Of a stretch of 52,964 nucleotides of DNA, positions 2,802 through 49,441 are shown piece by piece. The notes under the pieces are model-generated. The model did no database searches, was not told the DNA's origin, and saw nothing but the letters and a program-made list of their open reading frames with translations. Position numbers and translations under genes: made by a program. The DNA is from a virus (Duplodnaviria > Caudoviricetes), in the IMG/VR virus record IMGVR_UViG_3300037351_000019, positions 1-52,964 of that record. The stretch is one strand, 5' to 3'. The first letter of the stretch is position 1. Each line of letters begins with the position of its first letter.

Positions 2802-3788
2802 ATGAACCCAACGCCCGCAGAACTCAAAGCAGCCAACCTCGTCGCCGAAGCTCCGCCTTTGGTGAACGGCGAACCAATCAGATCATGGGACTCAGTCCAT
2901 CAGAACTTCCCGCCGATCGAGACCGTGTACGTGACGCCGGCGGTGGTTCCGCCGCCGCCTACGCCGCCGCCTACCCCAGTGACGGCAAGTGGCATCCCGA
3001 TCCCTCCGGTGGCTGCAGGCATGACGCGATCACTGGTCGACGACTTCGAGACGACCACGCTCTCGTCAGTCTGGGATCCCGACTACAACGGGGAATCAGG
3101 CGGTGCGATCGAAAAGAACGGCGGGTGGGTCGCCTCGATCGGCTACTTCTGCTCTAGCCACACCGTCTTGAAGGGCGACAGTCTCTTGCGCCTCGAGGCA
3201 TATCCCGACCCAGTGAACATCGTGAAGTGCTACGAGTACACCGCGTCGCAGGCGGCAGCGGTGAACCAGTGGGCTGGCGCTGGCGTGCAGGTCAAGTCCG
3301 CCATCGGTCCCGGCAGCGTCGAGACCGTCTGCATGAAGTTCGACGTGTATCCCGGCATAGCGCCGATGGCGATTGACTTCGGTTCCGGTGAAATCGACTG
3401 GGCCGAGTTCGGCGGCATCACCGCCAAGGGGCCTATCACCAAGTTCGCCGCCGCCATCCATTGGGACAACCAGAGCCAGCAACAGCAAATCGAAATCGTT
3501 GCGCCGACCGGCGTGGACTTCTCCCAGTGGGGAGCGTTCCGGCGCGTCTGGACGGATACGGGAGTGACCATCAGTCACAGCGTGGACGGCGTGAACTTCG
3601 TTGAGTGCGGGTCGTTCACGTTCAGCGCCGCGCAAATCTCTGGCGGGCTCACGACCCCGCAGTATCTGTGCCTGCAAATCCAGACCGGCGACGGAGGATC
3701 CGTTCTCGCGCCCCCGGCTGACCCCTCAGTGACCGCGAGCACCCCAGTCACGATGTACGTGGACTGGGTGACGGTCGACGTCGCGTAG
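2802..3788 (+). CDS. GH16-like glycoside hydrolase / ConA-fold protein with Pro-rich linker; probably leaderless
   Basis: GEIDWAE matches the GH16 ExDxxE motif; DDF..W and MYVDWVTV elements present; TAGAAT lies 6 nt before the ATG. Confidence 0.6.
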   Translation: MNPTPAELKAANLVAEAPPLVNGEPIRSWDSVHQNFPPIETVYVTPAVVPPPPTPPPTPVTASGIPIPPVAAGMTRSLVDDFETTTLSSVWDPDYNGESGGAIEKNGGWVASIGYFCSSHTVLKGDSLLRLEAYPDPVNIVKCYEYTASQAAAVNQWAGAGVQVKSAIGPGSVETVCMKFDVYPGIAPMAIDFGSGEIDWAEFGGITAKGPITKFAAAIHWDNQSQQQQIEIVAPTGVDFSQWGAFRRVWTDTGVTISHSVDGVNFVECGSFTFSAAQISGGLTTPQYLCLQIQTGDGGSVLAPPADPSVTASTPVTMYVDWVTVDVA

Positions 3789-3949
3789 TAGATTCAAGGT
3801 CGAATCACTCCTAATTAAGCCGTTGAGCCCGTGTCACGCTGACGAGCTGTGAGGAGTCCCGTCAGAAATCAGCGGGATCCTCACGTCTCGGCGCGACCCC
3901 CATTTCTGGACCTCTCAGAGGCGAGCGAGCCGCACCAGACGAGAATCAT

Positions 3950-15152: not shown

Positions 15153-15176
15153 AAACCCGCGTAATCATTGACGTTT
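15153..15176. promoter_or_regulatory. 24-bp AAACCC-N12-(GGG)TTT-type site
   Basis: AAACCC GCGTAATCATTG ACGTTT; similar to 42846-42869 and to the reverse complement of 40737-40760. Confidence 0.55.
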
Positions 15177-15185
15177 CACCATGTC

Positions 15186-15234
15186 TTGCTTCGTCCGTCT
15201 AACTGTGTATGATTGCTCATACAAACTTGGAGGG
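15186..15234 (+). promoter_or_regulatory. Promoter/operator TGTATGA-TTGC-TCATACA plus RBS
   Basis: TTGCTT-16-TATGAT; palindrome at 15206-15223; GGAGGG RBS. Confidence 0.75.
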
Positions 15235-39298: not shown

Positions 39299-40257
39299 GC
39301 GACGAGATCGTAGCGGGCCGCGTTGGCCCCCACAAGGAGAGCCACGAACCCCGACTCAAGGCTCGAGACTTCCTCGTCGGTGTAACCCCGGTCCAGGGGT
39401 TCCTTGAGTGGGATGGGACGAAGGGAATCGGTGAGCGTTGGGGGATGCTCGGCAATGACGTGTTCGGCGATTGTGGGCCCGCGGCGACGTCGCACAACAA
39501 CATGGCGAAAGCCGGTAATCCGAGCATTGGCGGTGATCTAGGACGACCGAAGTTCAATGGCGTCGAAGGAACGTACTTCGCCTACGGCATCGCCCAAGGT
39601 GAACCGGGACCGGAGCCTGACGAGGGCGTGGACAACGCGACGTGGTTGGGTTTCCTCTACAAAGAGGGAATCATCTACGGCTACGGGGAAGTGGACGATG
39701 AAGAGTTCGACTGGTTCGCTCAGTTGTTCGACGGTGCGATCGTCGGTCAAGGTCTTGACGGTCAGATTGCCTCAAATGACTTCAACGCCTCCCCGAGAAT
39801 CCCGTGGGACACGATGGACCAACCGGACGGCCATGACACCTTGACGATCATCACGCACGCTGACGGCTCGGGCGCTCTCGTTACCTGGGGAGCAGTACAG
39901 CCCTACACGGCGGCATACCGAAGGACGAACTGGCAGGACCGTTGGGTCATCTTCGACGCCGACGACCCGAACATCGACCATGCCAAACTACAAGCCGCAC
40001 TCGCTGACGTTCACGGAACCGTCACGCCTACCGCGTCTACTCCCGCCAAGGAATCATTCCTCGAAGAGGTTCTTGACAAGGTGCGCGCTGAGTTCAAGGG
40101 TTTCGAGGAATCCAAGACCTTCGAGGCCGCTGAGAAGCGCGTGAAGGAACTCGAACAGGGTCTGCACAAGGCGATGGGCTTGGCGCTCTCTCGCGAGTCG
40201 GAGACGGTCATCCTTGACGTGCTGAAGCAAATAGTCGCTGACTACATCCGAGTGTGA
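39295..40257 (+). CDS. Papain-fold cysteine peptidase-like protein
   Basis: MLGND.FGDC, GHD and VTWG motifs. Confidence 0.7.
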   Translation: MSDEIVAGRVGPHKESHEPRLKARDFLVGVTPVQGFLEWDGTKGIGERWGMLGNDVFGDCGPAATSHNNMAKAGNPSIGGDLGRPKFNGVEGTYFAYGIAQGEPGPEPDEGVDNATWLGFLYKEGIIYGYGEVDDEEFDWFAQLFDGAIVGQGLDGQIASNDFNASPRIPWDTMDQPDGHDTLTIITHADGSGALVTWGAVQPYTAAYRRTNWQDRWVIFDADDPNIDHAKLQAALADVHGTVTPTASTPAKESFLEEVLDKVRAEFKGFEESKTFEAAEKRVKELEQGLHKAMGLALSRESETVILDVLKQIVADYIRV

Positions 40258-40748
40258 TCGCCGGCGACATTGGGTTTGCTCGCACGACGGGTGTGATGGG
40301 TCGACTGATACGTTTCGGAGAACTACTCAAAGGCAAACCCGGTAGCGAGTGGAATCATCAGTTCATCGTCGACCGACAGATTGACGGAGAGTGGTACATC
40401 ATCCAAGCAACCATGAGGGGCGTCACGGATACGGCGAAACTCGCTGACGTAGCTCCGGGTGGAAAGTACGTCACGATGTCACCGCCGACCGAATGCGACC
40501 GCGCGAAGATTCTGGAGTTCAATCGCGCACAGGTTGGGGATAAATATTCATTCCTGACGATCCTCTCGATCGCCTTCGACATCCTGACGTGGAACTTCGT
40601 CCCAGCGTTCATGAACTCCTATCGTCAGTCGTGGGTCTGCTCGGGCTTGGTGAATGAATCCATGCGTTACGCAGGCTGGTTACATGAATACATAAACGTA
40701 TACTTAGTCACCCCCCAACAGGGCTTCAACGCTCTGAAACCCCAATGA
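40254..40748 (+). CDS. Permuted papain-like (YiiX/YebB-like) amidase
   Basis: AGDIGF, WNH before WVCSGLV, C-terminal VTP. Confidence 0.7.
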   Translation: MIAGDIGFARTTGVMGRLIRFGELLKGKPGSEWNHQFIVDRQIDGEWYIIQATMRGVTDTAKLADVAPGGKYVTMSPPTECDRAKILEFNRAQVGDKYSFLTILSIAFDILTWNFVPAFMNSYRQSWVCSGLVNESMRYAGWLHEYINVYLVTPQQGFNALKPQ

Positions 40749-40760
40749 TTTAGCGGGTTT
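40737..40760. repeat. Left 24-bp site; 40742-40760 is a perfect inverted repeat of 42846-42864
   Basis: CCAATGATTTAGCGGGTTT versus AAACCCGCTAAATCATTGG. Confidence 0.8.
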
Positions 40761-40792
40761 GGAGATTTGTCACACAAACCGTAAACGGATGA

Positions 40793-40800
40793 TGTATGAT
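40793..40800 (+). promoter_or_regulatory. -10 element for the Y RNA/Ro60 transcript
   Basis: TGTATGAT half-site ends a few nt before Y RNA unit 1. Confidence 0.55.
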
Positions 40801-40803
40801 TCA

Positions 40804-40887
40804 TCTCAGTTGTAAACGGGCCGGACGCTTAAGGGTTATCTTGATAATATCTCCCTCGGCGAACAACTCGTCTGTTTAGTTCTGAGA
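40804..40887 (+). ncRNA. Y RNA-like unit 1 (short)
   Basis: TAAACGGGC-C-GG pairs with TCGTCTGTTTA (bulged C); TCTCAG/CTGAGA outer stem; shares GGTTATC and AACA.CTC with units 2 and 3. Confidence 0.7.
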
Positions 40888-40968
40888 AGTGAAGATGGGT
40901 CGGCTGCTTGACGGTTATCAACTGCTAATTGAAAAAATACCGTTGGCAAACACTCATCCATCTGAACT
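40888..40968 (+). ncRNA. Y RNA-like unit 2 (short, anticodon-like hairpin)
   Basis: AGATGGGT-C-GG pairs with TCATCCATCT; TGCTTGACGGT/ACCGTTGGCA stem; TCAA-CTGCTAA-TTGA hairpin. Confidence 0.75.
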
Positions 40969-40973
40969 CTCAA

Positions 40974-41119
40974 GATGTGAAATGCGGGTCGGCTTCAAAG
41001 GGTTATCCATCTTAAGGAAGAGGTCGCTGGTTCGAGTCCAGTCAGCCGCGCAAGTGGTTGTAGCTCAGTTGGTTAGAGCGCTTAATCCCCTTTGGAAACA
41101 CTCATCTGCACTGCACATC
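40974..41119 (+). ncRNA. yrlA: YrlA-like Y RNA with circularly permuted tRNA module
   Basis: Bulged-C Ro stem; T arm GCTGG-TTCGAGT-CCAGT (41026-42); acceptor-like stem CAGCCGC-GCAA-GTGGTTG; D arm GCTC-AGTTGGTTA-GAGC; adjacent to Ro60. Confidence 0.88.
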
Positions 41120-41168
41120 GTTCTGATCAGTCGGGGCTCGTCAAACCCACGACATGAAAGGAACACCG

Positions 41169-42761
41169 ATGACGAATTACCTGAAGCACATCACCGAGAC
41201 ACCGCAGACCGAAGCAATCCCCGGCCGAGAAGACGCGATGAAGTTGAACCACGCTGGCGGCTACTCATTCCAAGTCGACGACTGGGCGCGTCTCAATCGC
41301 TTCCTGATCCTCGGAACTGAAGGCGGCACGTACTACGTCGGTGAAGGAAAACTGACGCGCGAGAATGCCGGCGTCGTCTTGCGTTGCATAAAGCAGGACG
41401 GTATTCGCGTCGTGAATCGAATCGTCGAAGTCTCGGACCAGGGACTTGCGCCGAAGAATGACCCCGCAATCTTCGCTCTTGCGTTGTGTGCGAAGAACGG
41501 CGACGACGCAACTCGTTCACTGGCCTACAGATCAGTTCCGAAGGTCTGTCGAATCGGGACGCACTTGTTCCAGTTTGCGGAGTGCATCAACGAACTCGGC
41601 GGATGGGGTCGCGGCGCGCGTAAGGCTGTCGCTTCGTGGTACACGGAGAGGGAGCCCGAGAAGTTGGCCTACCAGTTGGTGAAGTACCGCCAGCGCAACG
41701 GGTGGTCACATCGGGACTTGCTTCGACTCTCGCATCCGAAGGCCACCGACGACGATCACGCGCTGTTGCTTCGCTACGCTGCCGGCAAGATCGAAGGTGC
41801 CACAGGTGGAGAGTTACCCAACATCATCACCGCCTACGAGTTTGCCAAGACCGCAACCATTGCTCAGACGGTGAGCCTCATAGAGGACTTCGACATGCCT
41901 CGCGAGTGCGTGAACACGGAATACCTGAACGACCCGAAGGTTCTCGAGGCGTTGCTTCAGAACATGCCGACGACCGCGCTCATCCGCAATCTCGGCAACC
42001 TCACGAAGGCCGGTGTCTTGACACCGTTCTCAGATGGAACGAAGCGAGCTATTGAACTACTCACCAACGCCGAGTCAATCCAAAAGTCTCGCGTTCACCC
42101 AATGGCGATCTATCTCGCGATGATTACCTACGGCTCGGGCCACGGTGATCGAGGACGGGGAGAATGGACGCCGGTGCAAGAGGTCATGGGGGCGCTTGAC
42201 AACGCCTTCTACGCTTCCATGCCGAACGTCGTCCCGAGCGGTAAGCGAGTGCTGTTCGCTCTTGATACCTCGGGTTCGATGGGCGGTGGGTACGGAACTG
42301 GCCGAGGGTACGACGCTCCCATCGCCAAGGCCGCAGCGATGGCGCTCATTGCAGCCAAGACCGAACCTCGCAGCATGATCATCGGCGTTGACACCGGAGT
42401 CCAGCAGGTCGGGATTCATCCGAACATGCGACTCGATGACGCCATCAAAGAGGCCGGTCGTCACGGTGGCGGCGGGACGTATCTCTCGTTGCCGTATCGC
42501 GCACTCATGGCTCAGAAGTACGACGTTGATGGGGTAGTTGTCTACACCGACTGCGAGACGTGGGCCGGTCGTGGTCATCCCTCACAGGCGTTGAATGAGT
42601 ACCGACGTTCCGTTGGTCACGAAGTCAGAAACGTCATCGCGTCAATGACGGCGACGAGCCATTCGGTCGGTGACGTGGAAGACCCGTTGACGTTGCAGTG
42701 TGTGGGCTTAGACGCGAGTCTCCCGCAGACGATAAGCCAGTTCATCGGCGGTCAATTCTGA
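41169..42761 (+). CDS. rsr: Ro60 / TROVE-vWA RNA-binding protein
   Basis: NHAGGYSF, RLNRFLILGTEGGTYY, KYRQRNGWSHRDLLRLSHP, MPTTALIRNLG, MIDAS DTSGS and TDCET; RBS GAAAGGA. Confidence 0.96.
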   Translation: MTNYLKHITETPQTEAIPGREDAMKLNHAGGYSFQVDDWARLNRFLILGTEGGTYYVGEGKLTRENAGVVLRCIKQDGIRVVNRIVEVSDQGLAPKNDPAIFALALCAKNGDDATRSLAYRSVPKVCRIGTHLFQFAECINELGGWGRGARKAVASWYTEREPEKLAYQLVKYRQRNGWSHRDLLRLSHPKATDDDHALLLRYAAGKIEGATGGELPNIITAYEFAKTATIAQTVSLIEDFDMPRECVNTEYLNDPKVLEALLQNMPTTALIRNLGNLTKAGVLTPFSDGTKRAIELLTNAESIQKSRVHPMAIYLAMITYGSGHGDRGRGEWTPVQEVMGALDNAFYASMPNVVPSGKRVLFALDTSGSMGGGYGTGRGYDAPIAKAAAMALIAAKTEPRSMIIGVDTGVQQVGIHPNMRLDDAIKEAGRHGGGGTYLSLPYRALMAQKYDVDGVVVYTDCETWAGRGHPSQALNEYRRSVGHEVRNVIASMTATSHSVGDVEDPLTLQCVGLDASLPQTISQFIGGQF

Positions 42762-42806
42762 TAGGGTAGTCGCATCGCCTTCGGGTGGTAACTTCCCCTC
42801 CAGGAA

Positions 42807-42843
42807 GTGATGAAGCGGGGTCTTCGGGGCCCCGTTTCGTCGC
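42807..42843 (+). terminator. Long stable hairpin with a C(UUCG)G loop after rsr
   Basis: GTGATGAAGCGGGGTC-TTCG-GGGCCCCGTTTCGTCGC. Confidence 0.65.
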
Positions 42844-42845
42844 GT

Positions 42846-42869
42846 AAACCCGCTAAATCATTGGACTTT
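42846..42869. repeat. Right 24-bp site (inverted partner of 40737-40760)
   Basis: AAACCC GCTAAATCATTG GACTTT. Confidence 0.8.
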
Positions 42870-42900
42870 CGGGCCGTGTCACAGTTCAAGACTAGATTAT

Positions 42901-42948
42901 TGTATGATTAAACATACGTTCAAACTGAGCGTACCTGGAGAGGAAAAG
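42901..42948 (+). promoter_or_regulatory. Promoter/operator TGTATGA-TTAA-ACATACG plus RBS CTGGAGAGG
   Basis: Degenerate copy of the 547/15206 palindrome. Confidence 0.7.
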
Positions 42949-42949
42949 T

Positions 42950-43111
42950 ATGACTGAACATGGACTGAACGGCTGTGAGCGCGAGATCTACGAACTCAGG
43001 CGCGAACTGCGTAACGAGCGTCAGGTCTCCGCTGAATCATCGGCGCGACTGAACGCCATCATCGAGCAGTGTGAGGCGACCATCGCTGAGTTGCGGGCGG
43101 TGAAGGTATGA
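42950..43111 (+). CDS. 53-aa coiled-coil protein (not in ORF track)
   Basis: Strong RBS; ATGA overlap with the exonuclease gene. Confidence 0.6.
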   Translation: MTEHGLNGCEREIYELRRELRNERQVSAESSARLNAIIEQCEATIAELRAVKV

Positions 43112-49405: not shown

Positions 49406-49441
49406 TGTATGATTGAACATACAAGCAACTGGAGAGGAAAG
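49406..49441 (+). promoter_or_regulatory. Promoter/operator TGTATGA-TTGA-ACATACA plus RBS CTGGAGAGG
   Basis: Fourth copy of the palindrome. Confidence 0.72.

Follow-up and report, generated by a model that had tools for sequence, protein, structure and literature searches.

The window analyzed here is a complete viral record (IMGVR_UViG_3300037351_000019; 52,964 bp) of a phage from peat metagenomes (peat soil), and one of its loci raises the question of what is encoded in about 400 nt, without convincing coding potential, between the stop codon of one open reading frame (ORF; stop at 40746–40748) and a 535-amino-acid (aa) ORF at 41154–42761. A first-pass annotation of the sequence had placed three tandem Y RNA-like units in this interval and a Ro60-type TROVE/vWA gene behind them. 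The answer that we favor, with a probability of about 0.8, is a phage-borne Ro60 ribonucleoprotein (RNP) module that would be transcribed as one unit, from about 40795 to a hairpin at 42807–42843, with three Y RNAs first and Ro60 after them. All three RNAs would carry the same Ro60-binding handle and would differ in the module beyond it.

A Ro60 gene and the units in front of it

The Ro60/Rsr gene lies on the + strand (41154–42761). Its 535-aa product matched the Pfam families TROVE (E = 9.8e-44; 150.7 bits, cut-off 23) and vWA_Ro60 (E = 1.1e-34; 120.2 bits, cut-off 27.7), corresponding to a TROVE ring and a vWA domain, and Protein Data Bank (PDB) matches extended over nearly its whole length (Xenopus Ro60: E = 1.5e-101; Deinococcus radiodurans Rsr: E = 9.9e-101), with the D. 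radiodurans alignment spanning residues 4–534 of the phage protein. The DTSGS of the phage vWA domain, which we take to be the metal-binding DxSxS motif, aligns with DVSAS of Xenopus Ro60. Judged by these alignments, the protein is a full-length Ro60/Rsr orthologue, and the gene is as intact as the first-pass annotation had it. Comparison with the N-termini of homologues makes the ATG at 41169, behind GAAAGGAA, the likelier true start; the distance from the end of the third unit to the start of Ro60, on the same strand, is 35–50 nt. Identity to the Ro-like proteins of actinophages (cluster C mycobacteriophages such as I3, Gordonia phage Cashline, and Streptomyces phages) is only 40–43%; the closest cellular Ro60 proteins, from metagenome-assembled genomes of Acidimicrobiales, reach 55%, and environmental proteins up to 77%. 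Variant sites listed for the Ro60 ORF from other metagenomes fall at third codon positions in 17 of 23 cases, an excess that fits a protein under purifying selection. A megablast search of 40600–42950 against phage records returned no match, and a single-protein scan of viral contigs found no relative; alignment-based searches then found relatives. No match to a transfer RNA (tRNA; ARAGORN), RtcB or RtcA gene was obtained in the complete record, in agreement with the earlier statement that the genome has neither of the two Rtc genes.

The interval in front of this gene contains three units, all on the + strand, which have GGGYCGG, GGTTATC (8–14 nt later), and AACA(A)CTCRTC in common, in this order. 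Unit 1 is short (40804–40887), with a core handle at 40813–40878, a bulged C at 40822, UUAUC at 40836–40840, and a predicted outer stem of 6 bp (40804–40809 with 40882–40887). Unit 2, also short, occupies 40888–40968 (core handle 40892–40964, bulged C at 40901, UUAUC at 40915–40919), and unit 3, of YrlA type, occupies 40974–41119 (core 40981–41112, bulged C at 40990, UUAUC at 41003–41007). Scanning both strands of the whole window for the motifs, with up to one mismatch in each, revealed exact copies only at 40818, 40897, and 40986. The pattern CGGGYCGG-N8-14-GGTTATC matched twice against 0.00 expected from 100 shuffles, unit 2 escaping it by the T before its GGG.

Unconstrained RNAfold predictions gave each unit a terminal helix of 7–9 bp with one bulged C followed by one or two further pairs (G-C, G-U). 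Beyond the bulge come an asymmetric internal loop, whose 3′ strand reads CAAC, and then an inner helix ending in GG, with UUAUC behind it. Over the coordinates given above, the energies of units 1, 2, and 3 were −25.8, −21.6, and −49.7 kcal/mol (z = −2.30, −2.60, and −2.55), and 6, 3, and 1 of 200 shuffles, respectively, folded as well. The 353-nt array resolved into three separate domains in the minimum-energy and centroid structures alike. The pairs of the terminal helix read CG/UA/UA, CG/UA/CG, AU/AU/GC, and AU/GC/UA in units 1/2/3, and the inner helices likewise vary in sequence with pairing kept. The motifs common to the three units, the terminal helix with its single bulged C, and the exchange of stem sequences under maintained pairing, all of which the first-pass annotation had described, were thus recovered by the scan and the folding. 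As a separate observation, the 5′ strand of unit 2 (40892–40903) can also pair with GGUUAUCCAUCUUA of unit 3 (41001–41014), because ATCCATCT is present in both units; our pairing script scored this alternative 11/12, one above the native partner.

The 2.4-kb stretch also recurs elsewhere, in metagenomes from peat and permafrost that belong to several studies. Two contigs cover all or part of the array (X2, 40798–41147; X4, 40780–40953) with two differences each from the window, and the natural variants of unit 1 at 40845 and 40864, from two runs, are both at unpaired positions. In another contig from X2 (40798–40882), unit 1 has five substitutions, one insertion, and single-base deletions at 40828 and 40857, and there is a joint between 40882 and 41055; by inspection, the two deletions together with 40831 A>C leave the inner helix paired. 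It may come from a relative with a different array; we do not count it as a two-unit variant.

Next, we consider the class of the units. Unit 3 matched the Rfam YrlA family (RF02553) with E = 5.3e-7 and 39.0 bits, so the search proposed in the first-pass annotation did find a YrlA match, but one below the 69-bit gathering cut-off; YrlA-like units of named phages likewise score under this cut-off (26–47 bits). In the predicted fold, a V-like stem-loop (41007–41023) is followed by a T arm (41026–41042, loop UUCGAGU), an acceptor-like 7-bp stem closed by GCAA (41043–41060), and a D arm (41063–41079, loop AGUUGGUUA), and the order T arm, acceptor-like stem, D arm is that of the permuted tRNA-like module of YrlA. 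YrlA has a conserved GNCGAA motif and a YUAY that starts the V loop, according to the accessible text of Chen et al. (2014; PMC4201824); UUAU at 41003–41006 matches YUAY. In the region of the motif (GNCGAAN0-1G), the sequence is GUCGGCUUC in unit 3 and GCCGGACG in unit 1, with G, C, G and the bulged C kept and AA replaced. As YrlA does, unit 3 lies on the Ro60 strand and less than 4 kb from that gene. Units 1 and 2, of about 70 nt, have the handle and lack the tRNA-like module; their loops are A/U-rich, 17–25 nt long, and placed at the tip of long hairpins. Set against the short YrlB/Yrn2 class, for which Rfam has no YrlB model, the two are long hairpins that carry the motif, but with these A/U-rich loops. 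Against the Rfam model of nematode stem-bulge RNAs (sbRNA; RF01656), which are relatives of Y RNAs, unit 1 scored 22.8 bits (E = 0.036; cut-off 38). On the predicted structures, unit 3 is a YrlA-type, tRNA-like Y RNA, and units 1 and 2 share its Ro60-type handle.

Related units beside other Ro60 genes

A covariance model built from units 1 and 2 only (R1) was searched against the window and nine phage loci. It recovered unit 3 (E = 3.5e-5), with no further match in the 52,964 bp, and also five units beside Ro60 genes in three phages, mycobacteriophages I3 and Phabba and Streptomyces phage Stanimal; the closest outside relative of unit 2 is unit 3 of I3 (E = 6.9e-8 with R1). From eight R1 matches we built a second model, R2, under which units 1 and 2, both of them seeds, score 64.6 bits (E = 3.4e-10) and 71.6 bits, respectively. 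Searching R2 against the window, the nine phage loci, and 80 metagenome Ro60 loci gave 196 matches (E ≤ 1), every one of the 196 on the Ro60 strand. In 80 viral Ro60 loci from IMG/VR there were 87 matches (E ≤ 0.1), again all 87 on that strand, and in 80 bacterial genome loci 176 (E ≤ 0.1), with 173 on the Ro60 strand and the other three in one locus, L246. This amounts to 459 matches in 250 sources, 456 of the 459 on the strand of Ro60, a bias that serves as a control against chance matches.

Among the best 150 of the 196 matches, 92.2% of cells were paired, compared to 71.2% after shuffling and 35–46% when the partners were slid, and 16 of 19 pairs changed on both sides; the viral set gave 90.9% against 64.6% shuffled. 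The bulged C was present in 149 of 149 letters, and the G after the bulge and the UU of UUAYC in 150 of 150 each, counts that are not independent of the model, since R2 selects for these positions. The consensus at the GNCGAA position of the 150 units is GYCGAA. Short units (60–95 nt) make up 73 of these 150, and in many of the 90 sources tallied the end of a short unit and the start of the Ro60 match are no more than about 150 nt apart. Covariation was assessed on the model-based alignments, because MAFFT alignments shifted the short units against one another at the 3′ strand. The proposal to scan the flanks of phage TROVE genes with a model of the units therefore recovered further units whose handle pairs covary, and homologous loci, whose lack of conserved pairing would have spoken against the first-pass annotation, instead keep it.

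Arrays turned out to be common among these loci. A Ro60 gene of the same architecture occurs in 355 phage records. In mycobacteriophage I3 (locus L004, 1107–1454), three units in the order short-long-short (75, 146, and 72 nt) lie upstream of the Ro-like gene and overlap genes 241 and 242, which are annotated as hypothetical proteins and whose ORF calls may be spurious. Gordonia phage Cashline has two tRNA-like units upstream of Ro60, one of which scores 31.8 bits with the sbRNA model (cut-off 38), and Phabba and Stanimal have two units each. By eye, five tandem units are found upstream of the Ro-like gene in the Mycobacterium abscessus prophage prophiGD43A-5 (locus L006, about 725–1440), with the variant handle GAAC-A-GGAC, in which an A rather than a C is bulged; the first of them is annotated as tRNA-Thr(tgt). 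R2 finds none of these five and none in Limpid, and our unit counts are hence lower bounds. In Gordonia phage Sixama (locus L005, 3337–4614), Y RNA-like units follow the Ro-like gene and are intermingled with tRNA genes and with a transfer-messenger RNA (tmRNA; 3522–3943, 88 bits in Rfam) that lacks annotation.

Quantification over the 90 sources, again with the best 150 of the 196 matches, revealed at least one unit in 74, at least two in 44, and at least three in 21. The corresponding numbers for the 80 viral contigs were 40, 28, and 14, and two of these contigs (L097 and L152) have the short-short-long-Ro60 order of the window. Bacterial loci have up to seven units (L245), as read from the match table. 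Arrays of two to seven units are therefore widespread next to Ro60 in phages and bacteria, and the three-unit array of the window is ordinary. The high novelty that the first-pass annotation had seen in a multi-unit array is not supported, as such arrays exist in the deposited genomes of I3, Cashline, Phabba, Stanimal, and prophiGD43A-5 and in many viral and bacterial contigs. Our literature search met no description of arrays beyond two to four RNAs, which does not show their absence from print; Tables S1 and S2 of Chen et al. (2014) may list several units per locus.

Signals around the cassette and the bracketing repeat

A promoter-like region at 40768–40801 (+ strand) precedes the array and consists of a TGTCACA box (40768–40774) and a −10-like box, TGTATGATT (40793–40801), the latter corresponding to the −10 element claimed before the units by the first-pass annotation. 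The combination TGTCACA-N16-22-TGTATGATT occurs twice in the genome against 0.00 expected. There are five exact genome copies of TGTATGATT, all on the + strand, and the four others are followed by NNNCATACA, a ribosome-binding site, and a start codon; this recurrence points to a recurrent phage promoter or leader element. We also observed that TGTATGATT-NNN-CATACA, at 547–564, 15206–15223, 42901–42918, and 49406–49423 (+ strand), forms a palindrome that overlaps the −10-like box and is followed by YTGGAGRG and a start codon. A transcription start near 40807 would put the core of unit 1 inside the transcript. At the other end, behind the Ro60 gene, a G+C-rich hairpin of 17 bp (42807–42843, + strand) is the likely terminator of the cassette. 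It folds with −29.4 kcal/mol (z = −6.81; 0 of 200 shuffles as stable), which bears out the strong hairpin noted earlier at this place; no U tract follows it, and a terminator scan that requires a T run did not call it.

The cassette is bracketed by a perfect 19-bp inverted repeat (40742–40760 and 42846–42864; 84% over 32 nt), whose arms belong to a 25-nt element, GAAAnnnCAATGATTWMGCGGGTTT, with three matches in the genome at up to three mismatches against 0.00 expected. The upstream copy (40736–40760, + strand) overlaps the stop codon at 40746–40748 of the preceding ORF; the downstream copy (42846–42870, − strand) makes up the right arm and precedes the TGTATGATT box at 42901–42909 by 36 nt; and the third (15153–15177, − strand), far from the cassette, lies 34–36 nt upstream of another TGTATGATT box. 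All three copies, in either orientation, are thus 32–36 nt upstream of a TGTATGATT box.

This arrangement invites the explanation that the cassette is a mobile insertion with terminal inverted repeats that stem from transposition or recombination and not from regulation, a history that would be compatible with the Ro60 module described above. The perfect repeat encloses exactly the promoter, the RNAs, the gene, and the terminator, one copy of the TGTCACA-N-TGTATGATT combination stands immediately within the left arm and another immediately beyond the right arm, and Ro60 genes are patchy among phages. However, the third copy of the 25-nt element stands far from the cassette and also before a TGTATGATT box, a position better explained by a promoter-associated site, the cassette contains no transposase or integrase, and no relative with an empty site was found among phage records or viral contigs. 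We consider the insertion unlikely. From its position, we read the 25-nt element as a promoter-associated site, possibly bound by a regulator, rather than a transposon end. The idea that the arms are remnants of paralogous gene ends was dropped, since their translations have only K-x-Q-stop in common.

As for the neighboring genes, the 164-aa ORF directly upstream (40254–40748) has a PHROG match to an enoyl-CoA hydratase/carnithine racemase-like family (E = 6e-12) and no Pfam match. Downstream of the cassette lie genes for an exonuclease, replication initiator, helicase, and methyltransferase.

A proposed pairing of one Ro60 with several Y RNAs

Several points weigh against a module of three functional Y RNAs. 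No unit attains an Rfam gathering score, and the YrlA GNCGAA motif is imperfect in the units (GCCGGA, GUCGGC, and GUCGGC). Once the outer stems are taken off, the folding of units 1 and 3 is at the level of shuffles (z = −0.71 and −1.02; the trimmed core of unit 2: z = −2.52). A consensus sigma-70 scan called no + strand promoter before the array. The alignments used for covariation were fitted to the model structure and hence favor it, although the slid and shuffled controls speak against the covariation being an artifact of alignment. Finally, RNA-level support is limited to unit 3, with none for units 1 and 2: one 159-nt contig of a peat metatranscriptome (X20; depth 5.6) falls wholly on 40953–41111, with two differences from the window, one of them listed (G>A at 41080), and reaches the last base but one of the handle. 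As a single contig of low depth, from a library that may contain DNA, it does no more than hint at an accumulation of unit 3 as RNA. Elsewhere in the 2.4-kb stretch X20 gives no cover, from which we conclude nothing, and two other RNA runs, X21 and X22, contained almost no sequence words of the stretch.

It is in this light that one may ask whether only unit 3 is stable and bound by Ro60, units 1 and 2 being decayed duplicates of its handle, or else structured leader and processing elements of the transcript that have no function of their own. The short units do resemble a YrlA from which the T arm, the acceptor-like stem, and the D arm are missing, unit 2 has a loop like the V region of YrlA, and the RNA contig and the weak z-score of the trimmed unit 1 would fit. 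Against this, none of the positions invariant in the family (the bulged C, the G after the bulge, and UUAUC) is lost from either short unit, and short units account for nearly half of the best 150 of the 196 matches, are conserved with covariation, and in many cases end about 150 nt or less from the Ro60 match. In addition, the short YrlB RNAs of Mycobacterium smegmatis and Salmonella are bound by Rsr, as stated in the accessible text of Chen et al. (2014; PMC4201824). On balance, we regard a single functional unit as quite improbable. A chance resemblance, or degenerate debris of tRNA genes, would agree with the silence of ARAGORN and of Rfam at gathering thresholds, but is barely credible given that the motif pair appears in 0 of 100 shuffles and that a model made from the units retrieves hundreds of strand-specific matches beside Ro60 genes.

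The module with three Y RNAs has close counterparts in known systems. According to the accessible parts of Chen et al. (2014; PMC4201824), YrlA-related sequences occur in 254 bacteria and 22 phages, each of the three species studied has at least two Y RNAs, in M. smegmatis the genes of YrlA and YrlB precede rsr and the two RNAs, cut from one precursor, bind Rsr, and the region upstream of D. radiodurans rsr encodes four small RNAs; the authors propose that extra Y RNAs widen the range of Ro60 partners. There and in the accessible text of Kowalski and Krude (2015; PMC4726728), the Y RNA is described as a tether and a gate for Ro60. The M. smegmatis rsr locus resembles the phage locus in having Y RNAs upstream of Ro60 on the same strand, one of them tRNA-like with a 7-bp acceptor-like stem, and in lacking RtcB and RtcA; in contrast, the phage locus has three units in the order short-short-long, is phage-borne, and is known here from sequence alone, and its units 1 and 2 are without any T arm, whereas a possible T arm is reported for M. 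smegmatis YrlB. The Ro-like loci of actinophages (I3, Cashline, and Streptomyces phages) share with the window the Ro60 architecture, tandem units, and a handle with GGUUAYC, and differ in having mostly GA/UU after the bulge, where the window, a 53-kb genome from peat metagenomes, has GG/UC. Ro60 with at least two Y RNAs within 2 kb is also found in the rsr-yrlBA-rtcBA locus of Salmonella Typhimurium and the Rsr/Yrn1/PNPase system (RYPER) of D. radiodurans. In Salmonella, however, the RNAs lie 3′ of rsr in an RtcR-controlled operon with RtcB and RtcA, which the phage genome lacks, and RYPER has PNPase as a partner, whereas PNPase is no more than a candidate partner in the phage system. Metazoan Y RNAs and nematode sbRNAs (RF01656) resemble the units in the bulged-C helix (GGYC[C]G / CAAC-UY-GYCY) and in UUAUC after the stem, whereas unit 1 and the Cashline unit score under the 38-bit cut-off and there is no polymerase III context; this likeness may reflect a shared Ro60 binding site rather than common descent.

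If the locus is read as a module of three Y RNAs and Ro60, host RNases would cut the precursor to RNAs of about 70, 75, and 135 nt, the handle of each would bind the outer face of the Ro60 ring, and the different modules would tether Ro60 to, or gate it for, different partners during infection, e.g., host PNPase or tRNA-binding enzymes. We infer that one Ro60 would be loaded with all three RNAs. The first-pass annotation had inferred as much, and in our comparison this idea is essentially the model that Chen et al. (2014) published for bacteria.

The window alone changes little: it adds one divergent example, from an environmental phage, to the known association between Ro60 and Y RNAs. Its two short units, however, yield a model that retrieves hundreds of unannotated units beside Ro60 genes, and in deposited phage genomes such units go under the names of hypothetical proteins or of a tRNA. 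The short units may constitute a handle-only class of Y RNAs, of about 60–95 nt, with a C-bulged helix and an invariant UUAYC, that occurs together with YrlA in arrays of two to seven units in phages and in bacteria of several phyla. As units without the tRNA-like module also keep UUAYC, the role of this motif would then lie with Ro60 or a partner and not with the imitation of a tRNA. Compact, and equipped with a promoter-like box and a likely terminator, the cassette of 2 kb would make a convenient construct for pull-down. Somewhat short of even odds, we propose that units 1 and 2 belong to such a large handle-only class, which family libraries do not include, and that each RNA would make a distinct Ro60 RNP with which the phage would redirect RNA decay or repair in its host during infection.

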